Part shown: piece by piece, positions 784 to 16,514 of the stretch
Position numbering within the stretch: position 1 is the stretch's first letter
How the letters are laid out: each line of letters opens with the position of its first letter
Source: a virus
Lineage: Duplodnaviria > Heunggongvirae > Uroviricota > Caudoviricetes
Virus record (IMG/VR): IMGVR_UViG_2721755721_000001
Length of the DNA stretch: 64,000 nucleotides
Direction: 5' to 3' (one strand)
Position numbers and translations under genes: made by a program
The notes under the pieces: model-generated
Seen by the model: only the letters and a program-made list of their open reading frames with translations
Database searches by the model: none
What the model was told of the DNA's origin: nothing

Positions 784-3456
784 TTAACCCGGCACCTCGC
801 TGTTGAAGACATAGAGCCTGCGGGGATTCATCTCTGGCGGGCGAATGGTTGTCTGGAGTTTGCCATCAGTGGAGGGCAGCAGGTATCCACGATCTGCGCA
901 CAGACGCGCCACCTTGCGCGGGTCAAATCCCCTGCAGATTTCTTTCCAGCCGGACGGCATGACATAGAACGTAGTGACAGCTTCCGTGCCCTGCGCGGTA
1001 CTGCCTTTCTCCACCCTTCGCCAGCCCACCATATTGCCGGGGCGGTTGCGCTCGTCATACCAGTCTGCAAAGCGGCTGTACTGATTCGCGGTAAAGAAAC
1101 TGCGAACCTGCTCCAGTGCGGCGATATCTTCCTGATTGGCGGTGTGCCCGCGATCTTTCAGCCATGCGTTCAGGCAGACGCGGGTTGCCCGCAGTGCTTC
1201 ACCCTCAGGCCAGCCGGTGATACCCAGACGGGTTGCCAGTTCACCTGCCATCGCCACCAGTGCAAAGCGGTTCACAGCCCGGCCCACCTGATTGCCTGCA
1301 TCTTTCGGAGTCAGGGCGGCAGCATATTCCTTCATCAGCGATTTTGCCTGTGCCGTTAGTCCGTTAAGATCAGCGGTCAGTGCTTTCAGCCACTCCCGGA
1401 ACGGCGAACCGTAGTAGCAGGACGTGGCCCATTCAAGATGCTCTGCCAGAGCCTTGCCGCTGTCGAAGCCGTGCAGCTCCTCAAAAACGCCAAACTTCCC
1501 GGAATCGCTGGGGATCTGGATCATCCTGACTTCCATCCCGGCAAAAGTACGCTCACCGGCCTTTGCCGCATGTTCGGTCAGAGACAATTCGCCAGTTGAA
1601 AAGAACAACAGGCGCCACTGCTTACGGGTACGCAGCTCACCGTCCGTACCGGCACGGCCCTTGCCCTGACCGTTTGCCAGCATGTAGGCGATATTGCCTG
1701 CCTCGCGTCCGTCAACTTCCCGGATCTCATCAAGCATCATGGCGGCATCGTTGCGGCGGCTGGCGCATCCCTCCAGTGCGTTGCCGGTGGCCCGCCATGT
1801 CTGCCAGTAGTCAGGCCCGCCGCAGACGGAGGTTGCTGCTTTCATGGTGGTGGTCTTACCGTCTGTCGATTCCCCTTTGAGGTGGTAGCCGCCGCCGTCC
1901 ATACCAACCAGCCGTAACAGTGGTGCAGCAAAGGCCAGGCTGACAGCAAATGCCACGCGGGAGTTGCCGGTACAGTAGCGGGATACATGCTCCCGCCATT
2001 CCTCTGTTGTGCCCGACACGCGGAAATCACGCCCCTGCACGGAAGTGGTCTGGAGAATGACACCCTCTGCACCTTCACCGCTGACCTCATCCTGCAGGAC
2101 GTAAACCTGACCATGCCAGCCAGTACGACTGACGCAGGTCACGCGGCGTTCCGGTTTACACAGTGAGATATATTCCATCAGGCGTGCGCGTGCCTCACCG
2201 GTGGTGCTGATATAAGACAGCCCGTTAACCAGCAGTACCCGGCGCAGTTCCTCACCACTGCCGCTCAGCATTTCCATCGGCATCGCCCAGCGGCGACACT
2301 CACCCCACGTATCTTCCCATTCCAGCAGTCGTCCGAAGTTACCGCCATCGGCATCGCAGGTGATTGCCGTCACGCGCAGCGGGCTGCATATTTTGACGTT
2401 CTGGATCTCCGTCTCACCGTTGCGCTGTACCTGCTTTTCATACCAGAGATATTCCTGGGTAAGACGGAACCCGTGCGGCAGTTGCGTGCGGCTTTCCCCG
2501 CAGAGTACCAGACCGTTGCGAAAGGCTTCACGGGCACGGGTAATACCGTGCTCCCGATGAAAGTCATTCCAGTCAGCCTTAATCTCTTCTGGTGGCAGCG
2601 TCATCCAGCCGCCAACAGCTTTTGCCGCCCGTTCAGCAAAGGCTCTGCCGGGATTCTCACCCCCGTCCTGAAAATCGTTATCACCGGCGATGATAATTTT
2701 TACCTCAGGCCAGCGTGCCCGCAGCGACTGCGCCACATTGGGCAGGTTGCCCGCAGATATGGCAGCCACTACGCATCCGGCAGTGAGCTGGCTTACCGTC
2801 AGCGCCGTAGCGTAACCTTCGGTAATCACCACCTGTATCGGTGGTTCAGACGGTAACGGGCTGAGCGACACAAACGCGCCTTTCATCGTGCTGCCGGGCA
2901 GTATGCTTTTTTCACCCGTCGGGGCGATAAGCTGTGCACCGGTCACGGCTCCGGTGTTGGTCGTGAGTGGTAACAGCAGGGAACCGGCAGGAAAATCCTT
3001 ACCGCTGATATGCTGTACGCTTCCGGTCAGAGAGGCCGGGTATCCGGCGAACCCTTTTCCTGTCAGATAGGCGCTTTCTCCCGTGTGGCTCTCTTTCATC
3101 AGCGCCGCCACGGTAAGACCCATGTCGCGTTTAGGGGCTTTTTGTCTGGCAGGCTTAACAGGCAGTTCCTGCATATCCGGCACATTAAGCACCTGCGCCA
3201 CCTCCTGCGCAGCCTTTCTGACGTTGTAACCGGTTACGAGCTTAACCAGATCCAGACCGTCACCATTGCCACACTGGCTGCAGATCCACGTCCCGCGCCC
3301 GTCAAGGTCATCAAGGCGAAAACGATCCTTGCCCCCACATTTCGGGCAGGGACCGTGCCTGCCGTTTTCAGGTACATCAATACGCAGCATCTGCAGAATA
3401 ACGGGCCATTTCCCCCGTGCGGCGGCTGAAACCTGCGTAACCGTCTGTATTGTCAT
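784..3456 (-). CDS. P4 alpha-like DNA primase-helicase (890 aa)
   Basis: N-terminal zinc finger CPKCGGKDRFR...CSQCG, TOPRIM-like ITEGYATALTV/IIIAGDND, Walker A GESTDGKTT in C-terminal helicase part. Confidence 0.85.
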   Translation of the reverse strand: MTIQTVTQVSAAARGKWPVILQMLRIDVPENGRHGPCPKCGGKDRFRLDDLDGRGTWICSQCGNGDGLDLVKLVTGYNVRKAAQEVAQVLNVPDMQELPVKPARQKAPKRDMGLTVAALMKESHTGESAYLTGKGFAGYPASLTGSVQHISGKDFPAGSLLLPLTTNTGAVTGAQLIAPTGEKSILPGSTMKGAFVSLSPLPSEPPIQVVITEGYATALTVSQLTAGCVVAAISAGNLPNVAQSLRARWPEVKIIIAGDNDFQDGGENPGRAFAERAAKAVGGWMTLPPEEIKADWNDFHREHGITRAREAFRNGLVLCGESRTQLPHGFRLTQEYLWYEKQVQRNGETEIQNVKICSPLRVTAITCDADGGNFGRLLEWEDTWGECRRWAMPMEMLSGSGEELRRVLLVNGLSYISTTGEARARLMEYISLCKPERRVTCVSRTGWHGQVYVLQDEVSGEGAEGVILQTTSVQGRDFRVSGTTEEWREHVSRYCTGNSRVAFAVSLAFAAPLLRLVGMDGGGYHLKGESTDGKTTTMKAATSVCGGPDYWQTWRATGNALEGCASRRNDAAMMLDEIREVDGREAGNIAYMLANGQGKGRAGTDGELRTRKQWRLLFFSTGELSLTEHAAKAGERTFAGMEVRMIQIPSDSGKFGVFEELHGFDSGKALAEHLEWATSCYYGSPFREWLKALTADLNGLTAQAKSLMKEYAAALTPKDAGNQVGRAVNRFALVAMAGELATRLGITGWPEGEALRATRVCLNAWLKDRGHTANQEDIAALEQVRSFFTANQYSRFADWYDERNRPGNMVGWRRVEKGSTAQGTEAVTTFYVMPSGWKEICRGFDPRKVARLCADRGYLLPSTDGKLQTTIRPPEMNPRRLYVFNSEVPG

Positions 3457-3836
3457 ACTTCCCCCTCATACAACGTCACACCGGTACTGCAGAAGTCATC
3501 AAATGCCGCCGGAAGCGTGCGGTACATCTCCGCCATCACTTCACAGCCGCGCGCGGTCAGTACCGGCGGCGCGGTCAGCAGTGACGGCTCCAGCATGTCA
3601 GTCAGCAGTGCCAGCGCGGCAGCGGCGCCCTGCACTTCGCCGTACTCGTTAATCAGTACGCACTCGATATGCAGCGCAATGGCCATTTCAATACGCTCCA
3701 CCGTCAGGCTGTGCGGACCATACTGATCACTGCCAGTTTCGTTCAGCATTTTCTGCCGCCATGCTGAAGCAATAGCCCGCCGGTAAAGCGCGGTGGTCAT
3801 TTCTACCGGGAAAATGGAAACCTGCGGCTGGTTCAT
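3453..3836 (-). CDS. hypothetical protein (127 aa), satellite early operon
   Basis: ORF overlaps the primase start by 4 bp (translational coupling). Confidence 0.5.
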   Translation of the reverse strand: MNQPQVSIFPVEMTTALYRRAIASAWRQKMLNETGSDQYGPHSLTVERIEMAIALHIECVLINEYGEVQGAAAALALLTDMLEPSLLTAPPVLTARGCEVMAEMYRTLPAAFDDFCSTGVTLYEGEV

Positions 3837-4117
3837 CTGGCACCTCCTTCAATCAGTGCGCAGCTGTGTGCAATATCCGTCAAATCTGCCAGCAGGTACT
3901 CCATCAGCGCGGCGACACCAGGCGCACAGCCTGCGTCCAGTGCTCCGGCCTGAGACGGGTATTCAGAAAAGAGAAGCTGGAGCATGTCGCAGGCATTTCT
4001 TGCGCGGGTCAGCTTTCCGAAACTGTCCTCTGACAACCCATAGGCAAAAGCACCGGTATTGTGTTTTTCAGGCAAAGTGTGGCCCTGAGCACCGTTGTGC
4101 CCGTTTGAAATATTCAT
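3833..4117 (-). CDS. hypothetical protein (94 aa)
   Basis: ORF overlaps downstream gene by 4 bp, same operon. Confidence 0.45.
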   Translation of the reverse strand: MNISNGHNGAQGHTLPEKHNTGAFAYGLSEDSFGKLTRARNACDMLQLLFSEYPSQAGALDAGCAPGVAALMEYLLADLTDIAHSCALIEGGAR

Positions 4118-6267: not shown

Positions 6268-7554
6268 TTAATTGATAATGTTAATACCTGATAAGTCATA
6301 AGGAGCATGGAATTCGTCCTTATTTAGTTCCAGATAATTAGACCACCATTGCATCATTCTGCGGCGTTCCTGCATGTGCTGCGCAAGATGCACATATGCT
6401 GCCCGCACTTCGTTTCTTTCTTGGTGACTCATCTGCCGTTCAACTGCATCGCGTGACCAGAGTCCTGATTCGGTCAGTGCAGAGCAGGCCATCGCCCTGA
6501 ACCCATGCAAGCAAACATCAGTTTGAGTGTCGTAACCCATCGTTCGCAGTGCTTTATTAACTGTGTTTTCGCTCATCGGTTTATATGGGTTGCTGTCACC
6601 GGGAAAAACCAGCAGATATTCACCACTGATTTTCCTTATATCCTCCAGTACCCCGATAGCCTGACTAGATAGCGGGACATAATGAGCAGCCCCCATCTTT
6701 GCACCCCGATCTGAGAATTTAACCCCTGCGATCTCTTCACGTTGTCCTGGTATCGTCCATAGCCCATTTTCAATGTCGATCTCCTCCCATCTGGCATGTC
6801 GTAGTTCGCTGGATCGCACAAAAGTGTGCAGGGAAAAGAGAACTGCTAGGCGAGTCAATGGTCTTCCCGTGTAACTTCTCGTTTTCGCTAACAGTTCAGG
6901 TAAACGTTCGAGAGGTAGTGCGGGGCGATGTCGTACTTTGGGGGCCGTAATTGCACCTTTTAGATCGTGGGCAGGGTTGTAATCGACAATTCCACGTTGC
7001 ACGGCATAACGGAAGATGCTCGTCATAGTGGTTTTTACACGGCTCGTTGTGGCACCAATTCCTTTCTCAGTCATCTCAACCAGCATCGGCATCAAGTCAC
7101 GGGTTTTGAGCGTATCGATAGGCTTTGAACCGATGGCAGGAAAGAGGTGGTTTTCCATTTCTCGGAGAATTTTTTTACGGGTGATCTCTTTCCACTCAGG
7201 ATGCCCCATCGTTCCACTATGCCACTCTCTGGCAACACTCTCGAACGTGGGGGAAATTGGGTCTTCCTTTTTGGGTTTCTTTGCTTCGCGAGGATCACGA
7301 CCATCGGCTAGTAGTTGCCTGGCTTCATCACGCCGTTTCCGCGCTGTTGCAAGTGAGACATCTGGGTAGACCCCTAATGCCAATGTCACTTGTTTTCCAT
7401 CAAAACGATAATTCATACGCCAGTATTTTCCACCAGTCTTTCGTACCAGTAGATACAAACTCCCTCCATCGGTAAGTTTGTAATCATTGGTCTTCGGCTT
7501 GGCGTTTTCTATCTGTTTGGGGGAAAGCACATTAATGGCCATATCTGTACTCAT
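6268..7554 (-). CDS. int: P4-type tyrosine integrase (start uncertain, ORF extends to 7602)
   Basis: N-terminus LSPKQIENAKPKTNDYKLTDGGSLYLLVRKTGGKYWRMNYR typical of P4-family integrases; C-terminal catalytic region with HGFR...Y. Confidence 0.85.
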   Translation of the reverse strand: MSTDMAINVLSPKQIENAKPKTNDYKLTDGGSLYLLVRKTGGKYWRMNYRFDGKQVTLALGVYPDVSLATARKRRDEARQLLADGRDPREAKKPKKEDPISPTFESVAREWHSGTMGHPEWKEITRKKILREMENHLFPAIGSKPIDTLKTRDLMPMLVEMTEKGIGATTSRVKTTMTSIFRYAVQRGIVDYNPAHDLKGAITAPKVRHRPALPLERLPELLAKTRSYTGRPLTRLAVLFSLHTFVRSSELRHARWEEIDIENGLWTIPGQREEIAGVKFSDRGAKMGAAHYVPLSSQAIGVLEDIRKISGEYLLVFPGDSNPYKPMSENTVNKALRTMGYDTQTDVCLHGFRAMACSALTESGLWSRDAVERQMSHQERNEVRAAYVHLAQHMQERRRMMQWWSNYLELNKDEFHAPYDLSGINIIN

Positions 7555-7814
7555 TTTGGTAAATTGATGGTATCTGCATATCGAACTGGGGAATACCATC
7601 ACTTATACCATCACGAGGTTGTAATGTCATGAAATTAACTGAAATGAAAATCAGGCCGATTCGGTGATAACTTACTGTTTTTTTAAGTGGTTATGTAATG
7701 AAGTGAAATGTAGAGAAAGGTCTTTAAAGTGTCCCCTGCAGACATCTACTTGAGGCAGCAGGGGATTGATTGGAATGGTGTTTTTTAGGTGTGAGAAATA
7801 TTTTACCCGCTATT

Positions 7815-13367: not shown

Positions 13368-13736
13368 TCAGGCGGCCTTGATAGTCATATCATCTGAATC
13401 AAATATTCCTGATGTATCGATATCGGTAATTCTTATTCCTTCGCTACCATCCATTGGAGGCCATCCTTCCTGACCATTTCCATCATTCCAGTCGAACTCA
13501 CACACAACACCATATGCATTTAAGTCGCTTGAAATTGCTATAAGCAGAGCATGTTGCGCCAGCATGATTAATACAGCATTTAATACAGAGCCGTGTTTAT
13601 TGAGTCGGTATTCAGAGTCTGACCAGAAATTATTAATCTGGTGAAGTTTTTCCTCTGTCATTACGTCATGGTCGATTTCAATTTCTATTGATGCTTTCCA
13701 GTCGTAATCAATGATGTATTTTTTGATGTTTGACAT
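13368..13736 (-). CDS. ea10: lambda Ea10
   Basis: 122 aa, MSNIKKYIIDYDWKASIEIEIDHDV... Confidence 0.8.
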   Translation of the reverse strand: MSNIKKYIIDYDWKASIEIEIDHDVMTEEKLHQINNFWSDSEYRLNKHGSVLNAVLIMLAQHALLIAISSDLNAYGVVCEFDWNDGNGQEGWPPMDGSEGIRITDIDTSGIFDSDDMTIKAA

Positions 13737-13916
13737 CTGTTCATATCCTCATAGATAAAAAATCGCCCTCACACTGGAGGGCAAAGAAGATTTCCAATAA
13801 TCAGAACAAGTCGGCTCCTGTTTAGTTACGAGCGACATTGCTCCGTGTATTCACTCGTTGGAATGAATACACAGTGCTGTGTTTATTCTGTTGTTTATGC
13901 CAAAAATAAAGGCCGA

Positions 13917-14540
13917 CTATGCGGCCTCGGAAGGAAGTCCAATCATCTTATTCAAATCTTCTACCCGTAAAGCAGGAAGTGCTGTACTTGCTTTATCTGC
14001 TTCTTTTGGTAGCAATTCTTTGCTTTCAGGCCAAACTTCAATAAGTCGCTTAACTGTTGTTACTGAGTTCAAAGCAGCCCATACATTTGATTCGATATCC
14101 TTTTTCCTGGCTTCAAGTTTTTGTTGCAATGCGCAGATTTCATCAAACCTTTTTGTTATTTCGTGTTCTGCGTTAAACATGCATTTATCTCTGTTAGGAG
14201 TAGGGAGCAATATATCTTCGCCGTTACCGTCTTTTCCATATGAATACCAGCCAACCCTTCTGCCAGATACAGTCAGATAAATTGAAGTAGAACGAACATC
14301 GTATGAGTAAAATGAACATCCCATCTTTTCAAGTTCTTCACTTATAGCCATTAATCTGGATGATAACTGATCCACTTCTTCAGTTTTCTTTTTACCGCCA
14401 AACGCAACAACTCTGGCGTCAAGTGCAAGCCGGTTCTTTAACTTTGTTACTTCTTCAAGTTCGGTGAAAACCCCGGACTTAATTAAAGCGTTACGAGCGA
14501 TATCCTCTTTCATTCTCGTAGTTAAGCGGATTGATGACAT
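13917..14540 (-). CDS. hypothetical protein (about 207 aa) in the ral/sieB slot between ea10 and N
   Basis: Start at MSSIRLTTRM with GAGAGG Shine-Dalgarno; no motif recognised. Confidence 0.55.
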   Translation of the reverse strand: MSSIRLTTRMKEDIARNALIKSGVFTELEEVTKLKNRLALDARVVAFGGKKKTEEVDQLSSRLMAISEELEKMGCSFYSYDVRSTSIYLTVSGRRVGWYSYGKDGNGEDILLPTPNRDKCMFNAEHEITKRFDEICALQQKLEARKKDIESNVWAALNSVTTVKRLIEVWPESKELLPKEADKASTALPALRVEDLNKMIGLPSEAA

Positions 14541-14601
14541 ATTAATTCCTCTCAAATAAGTGGTTTGCTGCCTGATTTCATTTTCTGGTGACCAACACAA
14601 G

Positions 14602-14985
14602 TCATCTTGCTGTCAGTTGTTTTGATTTCCGGTAGCCTGCCGCGTAAATGGCTACGTTTGGAAGACATACACCAGTTTCTGGTTGCTTATGTCCAAACTC
14701 ATTCGCGTACACAATGGCCGCTCGCTCCAGATTGCGTCTGTATTCTTTCTGTTGCCAGATCACGTCCTGTGCCATGAACTTAATTGGCTTAGCGTCTTCT
14801 ATGCGCTCAGGCGTTTCGTGAGTACCTTTAGCCTGAATCTGCGCTCTGCTTAGAGTAGGGCGGTGTAATACTTCTGAACTTATTGCTTCTTCGCGGGCCA
14901 GTACGCCGTTAGCTAATGCCTTTGCCTTTAAACGCTCACGACGACGAGAACGTGAATTGCCTTTGAACTGAGTTCTGCGTGTCAT
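14602..14985 (-). CDS. N-like transcription antiterminator (arginine-rich N-terminus)
   Basis: MTRRTQFKGNSRSRRRERLKAKALANG... arginine-rich motif; first gene leftward of the immunity region. Confidence 0.6.
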   Translation of the reverse strand: MTRRTQFKGNSRSRRRERLKAKALANGVLAREEAISSEVLHRPTLSRAQIQAKGTHETPERIEDAKPIKFMAQDVIWQQKEYRRNLERAAIVYANEFGHKQPETGVCLPNVAIYAAGYRKSKQLTAR

Positions 14986-15454
14986 ATAGACCTCCTGATG
15001 AACTTTGGTGGTGTGGTAGGTGGGAGACCCATTTCGACCTGTTTCGGCCTACTTCAATTCGGCAATAGTCCCGCAGGCCTCGCCGCTTTACGTGCGACAT
15101 ATTCCCGTCCATGAACCCTTCACCACACCCCAAAGTTCACTTTGGTTATTGCGCTTTGTCAGCGCCGTAGATTCATATTCGAATCGTTGTATATTCACCG
15201 CCCTGGTGAGTAATGCGTCCTGCTGACGACGATAATAATGAACCAATAGTTCGACATTATTAAGAACTATTGGTACGAATTTTGGTGATTTATTAACTCT
15301 ACGAAGTATGATTCTGATATATAAGGAAATTTATTTTTGAAAATGTGGCTGATGAAGGTTATGCGGCAGGGATCATAACTGCATGGTTTAGCGAGTTACA
15401 TCAACAAATACAATTGGTTATGGTGTTTTTAGGTGGGGGATCGAGAGGCAAAGA

Positions 15455-15485
15455 AAACCCGGCTCGGTGGCCGGGGTTAGATTTT
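15455..15485 (-). terminator. rho-independent terminator downstream of the 341-aa gene
   Basis: Minus-strand CCCGGC-cacc-gaGCCGGG hairpin followed by TTTTCTTT, directly after the stop at 15489. Confidence 0.55.
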
Positions 15486-15488
15486 CTG

Positions 15489-16514
15489 TTATGGGCGAGT
15501 GATGGTTGATGCGTTTCCGTTTTCTATTACACCTGCTCGTATCGTGTAGCTTCCCAAGATTTTTACTGTCCTGTTTTCTTTCATTGCATCAAACAGTATG
15601 GCGATCTCGTCTTTATCATCTATGAACGACGTGTCCACCGAAACAGGGAAACTGTCTTCACTAGATGGTTCGCGGCAGCTTAGGGTTATCTTTTCCGCAG
15701 TACGCTTGATTCCATCAATGACTAATTCAAGGTTTCTTTCTTCTTTTTTTGCTTTTTCGATAGGGTTCTTGATTAGTTCGTGGATTTCTTTGTTAGACAG
15801 TTCAACTGTGCTTGCGCCTGATATGACAATTTTGTCAGCATCAGACGCGCCTTTTAATACCCCTGTATACGCTTTTGCAGTATGCTCTTGAATCCCTTCG
15901 GCGCGCTCTACTGCATCTATGCCCGCTTTAGCTCTAATCGCCTCAAGCATTCCGTCCCTTAATATCGTCATGCGCTCGTTTTCTGATTTAATCTTGGCTT
16001 CTTCGAGCTTTGTTTCTTCTTGCTTGACTTCTACTTCGGCTTTTTTCTCTAAGTATGATGTACCAACCCATGCACCGCCTATAACGGTGACAGCAAACAA
16101 GAAGCATAATGTTTTTTGGCTAGGACTCATACCGTGTGTTACCTTCTCAAAGGCTTTACCGAATGCTTCAAAAAGCTTTGTTAATGCAGCAAGTATATCA
16201 GTACAACCTTCATTAATGGTAAAGATGATCTCTGCTTCCTCTTTATCTTTACCAGTTAACCTTTGAAGGTTGTCAGTTTTATATTTTATTAGTGTGAAAA
16301 CTTTATAAATTTCAGTCTGAAATTCGCATAAACCCTGAGCTAGAGGAGATGGAAGCGTTCCGTTGTAGCGAGAAGGATCACCATAAATCTTAAAATTCAC
16401 ATTATTGAAGAGGTCTAACTTGATCCTGTCGATAGTGATCTCTTCGCCACCATCTAACCTTGCAAACAAAGATTCAATGTCGTCCAGACTTGAAACATTA
16501 ATAATATCTTTCAT
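15489..16514 (-). CDS. unassigned membrane-anchored protein (341 aa) in the rexAB position downstream of cI
   Basis: GAAGGTG Shine-Dalgarno; AT-rich; one predicted TM helix (LCFLFAVTVIGGAWVGTSYL) then K/E-rich coiled coil; no motif recognised. Confidence 0.7.
   Translation of the reverse strand: MKDIINVSSLDDIESLFARLDGGEEITIDRIKLDLFNNVNFKIYGDPSRYNGTLPSPLAQGLCEFQTEIYKVFTLIKYKTDNLQRLTGKDKEEAEIIFTINEGCTDILAALTKLFEAFGKAFEKVTHGMSPSQKTLCFLFAVTVIGGAWVGTSYLEKKAEVEVKQEETKLEEAKIKSENERMTILRDGMLEAIRAKAGIDAVERAEGIQEHTAKAYTGVLKGASDADKIVISGASTVELSNKEIHELIKNPIEKAKKEERNLELVIDGIKRTAEKITLSCREPSSEDSFPVSVDTSFIDDKDEIAILFDAMKENRTVKILGSYTIRAGVIENGNASTITRP

Follow-up and report, generated by a model that had tools for sequence, protein, structure and literature searches.

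An orphan Nmad5-family gene between N and ea10 of a lambdoid phage as a candidate counter-defence gene

What does a lambdoid phage carry between the antiterminator gene N and ea10, and what might the product do? In lambda, sieB sits in this interval. The DNA analysed here (64,000 nucleotides of the Caudoviricetes record IMGVR_UViG_2721755721_000001; the window) has there a gene of 207 codons, for which a sequence-only reading had suggested a counter-defence or exclusion function from position. The features to which the argument refers are as follows.

13368-13736, minus strand: Ea10-like gene (DUF2528, PF10800, E 1.8e-47), the next gene downstream; Ea10/ssb in the 933W annotation
13763-13784, minus strand: second terminator-like hairpin, in the interval between the cassette and ea10 (-13.0 kcal/mol, z -2.2)
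13900-13928, minus strand: intrinsic-terminator-like hairpin, a 7-bp GC-rich stem followed by UUUAUUUUU, overlapping the stop codon of the Nmad5 gene (fold -13.2 kcal/mol)
13917-14540, minus strand: Nmad5-family coding sequence (207 aa, 23.3 kDa, pI 7.6), supported by the ORF listing, Pfam PF18757, PHROG 1965, dN/dS and GC content
14548-14553, minus strand: Shine-Dalgarno sequence GAGAGG, 7 nt 5' of the ATG, read directly from the sequence
14552-14605, minus strand: 17-codon remnant MTCVGHQKMKSGSKPLI (then a stop) from the 3'-terminal part of a lambda-type N, located where the H-19B-type N meets the cassette
14602-14985, minus strand: antiterminator N of the H-19B/933W type, upstream gene of the same predicted transcript; N in the annotations of 933W and PhiR12, with 97-99% DNA identity
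14986-15475, minus strand: region with a 933W-type tM-like terminator (15458-15475, terminator scan), OL/pL and nutL, 98% identical to 933W

The open reading frame is as it had been read: the ORF listing gives 207 codons on the minus strand, from the ATG at 14540 to the stop codon at 13917-13919, with a good Shine-Dalgarno sequence in front, and the gene lies between the Ea10-like gene and N. A longer form starting with TTG (227 aa) was dropped, as homologues across many genera begin with MSS(I/V)RLT. Among 88 close copies, which correspond to 68 distinct alleles, dN/dS is 0.29 (dN 0.021, dS 0.073). Because this ratio is low and about uniform over the length of the gene in these alleles, the ORF is a genuine conserved gene under purifying selection. 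Its GC content is 39.9% versus 51.8% for the window, a difference that acquired accessory cassettes typically show. No transmembrane segment was found by the Kyte-Doolittle method with 19-residue windows (maximum mean 0.61), in agreement with the sequence-only reading.

That reading had also described the protein as unassigned and without a recognisable motif, which was wrong. In Pfam, the model PF18757 (Nmad5, "nucleotide modification associated domain 5") aligns with residues 4-203 along its full length (positions 1-206 of 206), with an E-value of 7.6e-72 and a score of 242.1 bits against a gathering cut-off of 27, and PHROG 1965 ("unknown function") matches with an E-value of 2e-81. The protein also has the conserved residues and the single domain of about 200 aa that we derived from the family alignment as marks of membership. 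Thus, membership in the Nmad5 family is secure, and as a sequence feature the gene is already known in Pfam, PHROG and RefSeq, where the product of close copies is named "Nmad5 family putative nucleotide modification protein". In mEp235, HK542 and Stx1a-converting phages, near-identical copies are labelled "hypothetical protein", an identical protein is encoded on another IMG/VR contig (L003), and of 5426 complete E. coli genomes, 211 (about 4%) have a copy with 96% identity. When 1.84 billion cluster representatives were searched with a profile, 2304 clusters, at 50% identity, matched with E <= 1e-3, and 696 matched with E <= 1e-10. Almost all of the best 150 representatives are 190-220 aa long, all of 104 diverse members contain Nmad5 as their only domain, and a profile search restricted to the C-terminal motif, meant to reveal fused domains, gave Nmad5 fragments only.

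Searches of other collections with the window protein gave little. NCBIfam returned an insignificant match only (E 0.42, well under its cut-off), and PADLOC-DB 2.0, searched for defence components, returned 0 families at E <= 1. The family is named and has no characterised member, so that the searches brought up no characterised homologue of unrelated role to contradict the sequence-only reading. Nmad domains were reportedly first described by Iyer et al. in NAR in 2013; a search of the literature found no mention of PF18757 or phrog_1965. The "nucleotide modification associated domain" listed among defence systems by DefensePredictor (Science 2026) is Nmad2 (PF18753) according to its supplements, and is irrelevant to Nmad5.

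AlphaFold2 predicted the structure of the window protein with a pLDDT of 85.7 and a pTM of 0.71 from 30 sequences, and with a pLDDT of 91.4 and a pTM of 0.82 from 104 sequences, and the two runs agree. The predicted helices are at residues 8-22, 24-47, 50-72 and 127-158 (the long one), with short ones within 163-184, and a beta-hairpin is predicted at 86-100. In the model, helices 24-47, 50-72 and 127-158 form a three-helix coiled-coil stalk; the hairpin and short strands form a small beta-sheet, followed by a small C-terminal helical part and a tail (181-207) that is poorly ordered (pLDDT about 60). The predicted fold is confident and without a solved relative: Foldseek against the PDB gave nothing at E <= 1e-3 (best E 0.23, flagellin-like helices), PDB sequence profiles gave no solved relative, and fold matches in BFVD were only to Nmad5-like uncharacterised phage proteins. 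Comparison of the family profile by hhalign with Siphovirus Gp157 and with 933W L0079 revealed no relationship.

The tail and the helices preceding it are the most conserved stretch of the family, with the pattern TxK[KR]LxExWPExxELLP ... LPAxxVxDLNxxIGLP and the conserved positions W170-P171-E172, L176, P178, L196-N197, G201 and P203. Over the whole protein, G48, P178 and N197 are invariant in the 104 diverse members, and R5, R43, G93, T162, W170-P171-E172, L196, G201 and P203 are conserved in at least 90% of them; the window protein has all of these. Because the terminal peptide is conserved but poorly ordered in the model, it may be a docking or oligomerisation motif. The conserved polar residues are R5, R43, T162, E172 and N197, and we found no catalytic-type set (a constellation of Cys, His, Asp, Ser or Lys) in the family alignment.

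When would the gene be expressed? The counterpart of 14986-15475 in 933W has annotated nutL and tM. Because this upstream region with its tM-like, OL/pL and nutL elements is 98% identical to that of 933W, N and the Nmad5 gene are predicted to be read from pL. In the 61-nt spacer between the two genes, no promoter-like site and no stable fold were found, and a consensus terminator scan gave no terminator-like structure between N and the Nmad5 gene. The tL1 terminator of lambda lies just downstream of N, whereas in the window the first terminator-like site falls past the Nmad5 gene; for this reason the immediate-early pL transcript probably comprises N and the Nmad5 gene, a reading that rests on the consensus terminator scan. 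The hairpin motif overlapping the stop codon was found with the gene at no fewer than 61 of the 80 related loci. Shine-Dalgarno sequence, gene and terminator-like hairpin make up a self-contained cassette of low GC content.

The gene in front of the cassette varies among related loci. An intact lambda-type N ending in ...GVTCVGRQKMKLGSKPLI lies 11 nt ahead of the Nmad5 ATG in 24 loci, which have the junction stop-GAGGAATTAAT-ATG; the gap is 61 nt after H-19B-type N (14 loci, the arrangement of the window), 36 nt after Ral (10 loci) and 136 nt after HK022-type Nun (7 loci). In the window, the 17-codon remnant of the lambda-type N is a putative recombination scar, by which the H-19B-type N and the Nmad5 cassette would have been joined.

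In related lambdoid phages, the cassette follows N or Nun directly, or follows ral where ral exists. The order along the transcript is fixed: N or Nun, ral, nmad5, L0079, p98, gp17, ea10 and then cc322, p138 or gad1, where every member after N or Nun may be missing. We examined 71 viral loci with essentially identical N and scored the first downstream ORF of at least 60 aa, which is not always the direct neighbour of N. At least 12 clusters of first ORFs follow the identical N, some of them longer members of the array: a 933W L0079-like protein (32 loci), a 75-aa ORF (12), Nmad5 (9), Ral (4; PF11058, E 1.6e-48) and eight further clusters, mostly unrelated, one of which is Ea10. Conversely, in 80 loci anchored on Nmad5 the companions are cc322 (15), Ral (10), Ea10 (9), L0079-like (8), p98 (6), p138 (5), P22 gp17 (PF17420; 4) and Gad1 (1; PF25705, E 5.7e-67). 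An initial count of 13 loci with Gad1 downstream of Nmad5 was rejected as a single-linkage artefact, caused by an upstream leader, MSLVTKQEPTCSDYWKS, that is common to three different proteins; strict tblastn gave the 1 of 80. Homologues with 38-40% identity in other prophages (a Logan contig and Photorhabdus) were again found in early-left position, shortly after N or the repressor.

The sequence-only reading had located ral in this interval, and Ral was indeed found here in sister phages with the same N. It had further seen the interval as occupied by a single unrelated ORF, but the gene is not simply a stand-in for ral: ral and nmad5 adjoin in 10 of the 80 loci. The "ral/sieB slot" is thus a row of cassettes, each of them optional. 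An IS3-family (IS629-like) element interrupts the Nmad5 gene of a Stx2a-converting phage near codon 35, and other Stx2a records have the same split match; since the element interrupts it, the gene is dispensable in the Stx2a phage.

By position, then, the gene belongs to a variable locus that in related genomes has known anti-defence genes (Ral, gp17 and Gad1). This positional evidence is suggestive only, because most neighbours in the array are without known function. The L0079-like, p98, p138 and cc322 proteins, a 237-aa protein, a 149-aa protein with a transmembrane segment and the protein of a 341-aa ORF had no PADLOC match where tested, and their best PHROG is of "unknown function"; most of the neighbouring cassettes and the 341-aa ORF were also without a match in Pfam.

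The likeness of Nmad5 to these and other early proteins lies in placement and timing. Lambda Ral (PF11058) is likewise a small accessory protein made from pL, encoded by an optional, N-proximal cassette in the same operon region. However, Ral is a Cys-rich protein of 66 aa with no similarity to Nmad5 in sequence or size, it was absent from the Pfam matches of the window protein at E <= 1, and the two genes are not alleles of one slot because they occur in tandem, Ral-36 nt-Nmad5. Gad1 (Gabija anti-defence 1) and P22 gp17 are alternative or additional cassettes of the same N-to-cIII array in sister phages, but they are unrelated to Nmad5 in sequence, absent from the window and rare companions (1 and 4 of the 80 loci, respectively). 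DNA mimics of the T7 Ocr and ArdA type are first-expressed anti-restriction proteins, and Nmad5 is likewise predicted to be expressed as the lytic programme begins. Unlike them, the window protein has no acidic bias (33 Lys and Arg versus 32 Asp and Glu) and no HMM or fold match to these proteins. Because of its pI of 7.6, we rejected the idea that it is a DNA mimic.

The only genetic data on the family concern Dhillonvirus Nmad5 (PhiSMS22 CDS6, PhiSMA8 CDS7, BF9 gp17). This protein matches the full length of the same Pfam model (E 1.3e-54) and is 33% identical to the window protein across the C-terminal 100 residues. In contrast to the window protein, it is 254 aa (BF9) or longer, its N-terminal half has diverged beyond BLASTP, and its gene, in a virulent phage, sits among head genes but on the other strand. 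Escape from the Tmn defence system maps to Lys-to-Glu substitutions in Dhillonvirus Nmad5, K216E in PhiSMA8 and K296E in PhiSMS22, whereas deletion of the gene gives no escape, and the gene resisted cloning and was apparently toxic (PMC11846954). A conference report on Tmn and Nmad5 summarises this result only. The authors proposed altered DNA modification as the explanation of escape (PMC11846954). The result can also be read as Nmad5 being the trigger that is sensed. The abstract of a 2026 preprint reports that Tmn recognises a phage protein, T2 RIIB. K215-K216 of BF9 correspond in the alignment to K164-R165 of the window protein, which belong to the conserved TxK[KR]LxExWPE motif. We take the published K216 of PhiSMA8 to be K216 of BF9, assuming that the numbering is shared. 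The escape allele in the conserved motif is gain-of-function-like.

Tentatively, and with less than even confidence, we propose that the window protein is a non-enzymatic protein made at the onset of lytic growth that would bind a component of the host or of a defence system through its C-terminal motif, in counter-defence or host takeover. It would be made alongside N once pL fires, at infection or induction, and would be silent in the lysogen. It would act by binding, not by catalysis, and would dock through the conserved C-terminal motif onto a macromolecule of the host or of a defence system; its role would most likely be counter-defence or host takeover in lytic growth, and in the window phage it would be neither a base-modifying enzyme nor a prophage exclusion factor. 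We favour this reading because of the position of the gene, its predicted timing, its behaviour as a cassette, its company (Ral, gp17 and Gad1) and the lack of a catalytic signature, as well as the cloning toxicity in Dhillonvirus and the Tmn escape allele in the conserved motif.

The name of the family points elsewhere. It is possible, though in our view unlikely, that Nmad5 is an accessory factor, probably without catalysis of its own, in the metabolism of DNA or nucleotides, for example a DNA-binding or regulatory partner of enzymes acting on thymidine or uracil nucleotides or on DNA bases. This is the main rival of our proposal, and the contexts of the gene in other phages support it. In YuA, the genes of the two-part 5-hmdU DNA kinase (gp13/gp14) and of the dU hydroxymethylase flank that of gp15 (Nmad5), and the genome note of SN1 places Nmad5 within the thymidine-hypermodification cassette of the M6-like phages SN1 and M6 (PMC9476957). 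In three divergent N4-like genomes the order DUF6378-ThyX-Nmad5-PD-(D/E)XK nuclease-primase-AAA_24 is kept. In P22-like nin regions the gene adjoins NinH, PapB and dUTPase, and in one of them a dGTP diphosphohydrolase-like gene precedes it by two genes. R5, R43 and the Lys or Arg residues at 164-165 could touch phosphate groups. YuA gp15 and SN1_019 (PF18757, PHROG 1965) resemble the window protein in their full-length HMM match, length, single domain and possession of all conserved residues, and its predicted fold is that of the Nmad5 models in BFVD.

However, the window gene is an orphan, placed in the pL operon of a lambdoid phage, and the window lacks the associated 5-hmdU DNA kinase, aGPT-Pplase and pyrimidine hydroxymethylase: a tblastn search of the 64 kb with YuA gp12-gp18, SP154 ThyX and the PD-(D/E)XK nuclease matched the Nmad5 gene alone, and Pfam found no modification enzyme in the left arm among ten ORFs (eight upstream, some of them in an adjacent element, ea10 and the 341-aa ORF). 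In such a phage, Nmad5 would have to act on host enzymes. Ral acts in that way, by stimulating host type I methylation. By organism name, moreover, YuA-like phages of Pseudomonas and Bordetella make up only about 66 of the 379 phage records with an Nmad5 match; in Dhillonvirus BF9 and Vibrio phage P23 the gene is an opposite-strand insert among head genes; the term Nmad occurs 0 times in a paper on thymidine hypermodification pathways; and the family alignment lacks a catalytic-type residue set.

It is quite improbable that Nmad5 is a replication or recombination accessory, such as a factor that assists or regulates an exonuclease or one that shields DNA ends, produced along with Red and Gam of the pL operon. 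The gene does share its operon with gam, bet and exo, it recurs in early-left operons with RecT/YqaJ, and in N4-like phages the PD-(D/E)XK nuclease gene directly follows it in the replication module. However, ea10, cIII and kil stand between Nmad5 and the Rec module, and the presence of Nmad5 is independent of Rec type, as the Rec module of its phage may be Bet/Exo, Erf-like or RecT. In 41 of the 80 loci, N, Ea10, the ORF of the cIII/kil region, Gam, Bet, Exo, orf341 and cI of the window are all missing. Nmad5 is also absent from a survey of DNA-transaction proteins of lambdoid early-left regions (PMC12315714), its model has no fold similarity to solved recombination proteins, and the gene is disrupted by an insertion sequence in at least one Stx2a phage, with the same split match in other Stx2a records.

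SieB-type exclusion proteins are membrane proteins that have their own promoter and are expressed in the lysogen. A sieB-like superinfection-exclusion or defence protein expressed from the prophage, which the place of sieB in lambda and the low GC content and cassette-like structure typical of morons might suggest, is very improbable here, as the protein has no transmembrane segment (19-residue maximum 0.61), no Pfam SieB match and no PADLOC match, the gene is downstream of the repressed pL without a promoter-like site in the 61-nt spacer, N is only 11 nt away in 24 loci, and the virulent N4-like, Dhillonvirus and YuA-like phages carry Nmad5 too.

With respect to the two functions suggested from position, exclusion is thus disfavoured, by the lack of a transmembrane segment and of an own promoter in a spacer of 11-61 nt and by the place of the gene in the repressed pL operon, and counter-defence has circumstantial support from the Ral/gp17/Gad1 array, the apparent co-transcription with N and the Tmn escape. 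Some points weigh against counter-defence as well. Ral, gp17 and Gad1 accompany the gene in 10, 4 and 1 of 80 loci, which is a modest link to known anti-defence genes, the DNA-metabolism modules in which the gene is found elsewhere (N4-like, P22-like, YuA) fit a nucleic-acid or nucleotide role at least as well, and the gene is dispensable in the IS-split Stx2a phage. From its sequence and context, the gene is a reasonable counter-defence candidate.

Rather more doubtfully, the proposal of a binding protein in counter-defence or host takeover might be extended to the whole family: Nmad5 proteins might be a large and structurally new family of immediate-early counter-defence or host-takeover proteins that neutralise an immune or housekeeping target in the host through the WPE...DLNxxIGLP motif, the label "nucleotide modification" being a by-product of the members noticed first, and the Lys-to-Glu substitution would then be a retargeted surface.

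The present analysis adds a sharper, testable hypothesis for Nmad5 and a description of the N-proximal cassette array. The family is widespread, from temperate lambdoids to virulent N4-like, YuA-like and Dhillonvirus phages, and confirmation of the hypothesis would reassign its presumed role. In lambdoid phages, the N-proximal array would then also deserve mining as an anti-defence locus, in which the L0079-like, p98, p138 and cc322 genes are equally uncharacterised. Because of its apparent co-transcription with N, its place in the array with Ral, gp17 and Gad1, and a family whose only genetic data are on Tmn escape, the Nmad5 gene of the window is a concrete and cheap candidate for anti-defence screens in a genetically tractable phage.

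The H-19B-type N gene, which lies beside Nmad5 (the 207-aa PF18757 gene) in the pL operon, is followed immediately past its stop codon by the end of a second N gene:

14552-14605, minus strand, 17-codon remnant of the 3' end of a lambda-type N

The same junction recurs in 14 viral loci. The remnant is a recombination scar, and shows that the N gene has been exchanged ahead of the Nmad5 cassette.

The genes downstream vary among related loci. In 32 of 71 viral loci with essentially identical N (within L095-L173), the first ORF to reach 60 aa past the H-19B-type N encodes a 156-aa protein like L0079 of 933W, making this the most frequent product at that place; it matched PHROG 1636, and had no match in Pfam or PADLOC. 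The L0079-like protein is also found behind Nmad5 in some loci. The 'Ea10/ssb' gene, carried by only 9 of the 80 Nmad5-anchored loci, is an optional cassette too.

933W (L002) 3588-4058, L0079
13368-13736, minus strand, 'Ea10/ssb' gene (Pfam DUF2528)

In one viral locus, L005 (IMGVR_UViG_3300045988_127283), a homologue of Gad1 (Gabija anti-defence 1) lies immediately 3' of Nmad5, inside a lambdoid pL operon:

L005 ~6700-7770, Gad1 homologue (PF25705, E 5.7e-67)

Gad1 shares its upstream leader sequence with two other downstream proteins, a coiled-coil protein of 322 aa and one of 138 aa; the sharing of this leader by three distinct proteins suggests a common recombination junction.

Nmad5 itself is interrupted in the Stx2a-converting phage LC616058.1 (L174, 10900-13500), where the gene is broken at about codon 35 by an insertion element of the IS3 family (IS629-like) that carries orfA and orfB. 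A split Nmad5 match (aa 1-36 and aa 34-207) was also found in other Stx2a records, the insertion itself having been inspected in LC616058.1 alone.

Two genes on the left side of the prophage integrase look like part of an element in its own right, P4-like or of satellite type, adjoining the prophage:

784-3456, minus strand, 890-aa primase-like protein (Zn-ribbon, Toprim, DUF927)
6268-7602, minus strand, DUF5375 protein

Between N/pL and cI, the place held in lambda by rexAB and in 933W by stk, is a further ORF, followed by a terminator:

15489-16514, minus strand, 341-aa ORF
15458-15475, tM-like terminator

The ORF had no Pfam or PADLOC match; its PHROG match is 6191 (unknown function), and its annotation in PhiR12_1 reads 'T2SS GspM containing protein'. 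It is a candidate for a defence or exclusion gene that would be expressed in the lysogen.

Among the Nmad5 family and loci L003-L173, early-left operon proteins frequently end in -AA. For Nmad5 itself this holds in 15 of 30 enterobacterial members and in 17 of 104 diverse ones; the other proteins with this end include Ral, Ea10, Bet, gp17 and an Erf-like protein. Such ends occur in 10 of 107 ORF clusters, against ~0.6% expected by chance. They resemble the ssrA-like C-terminal signal that ClpXP recognises, and might limit the lifetime of early-left operon proteins.
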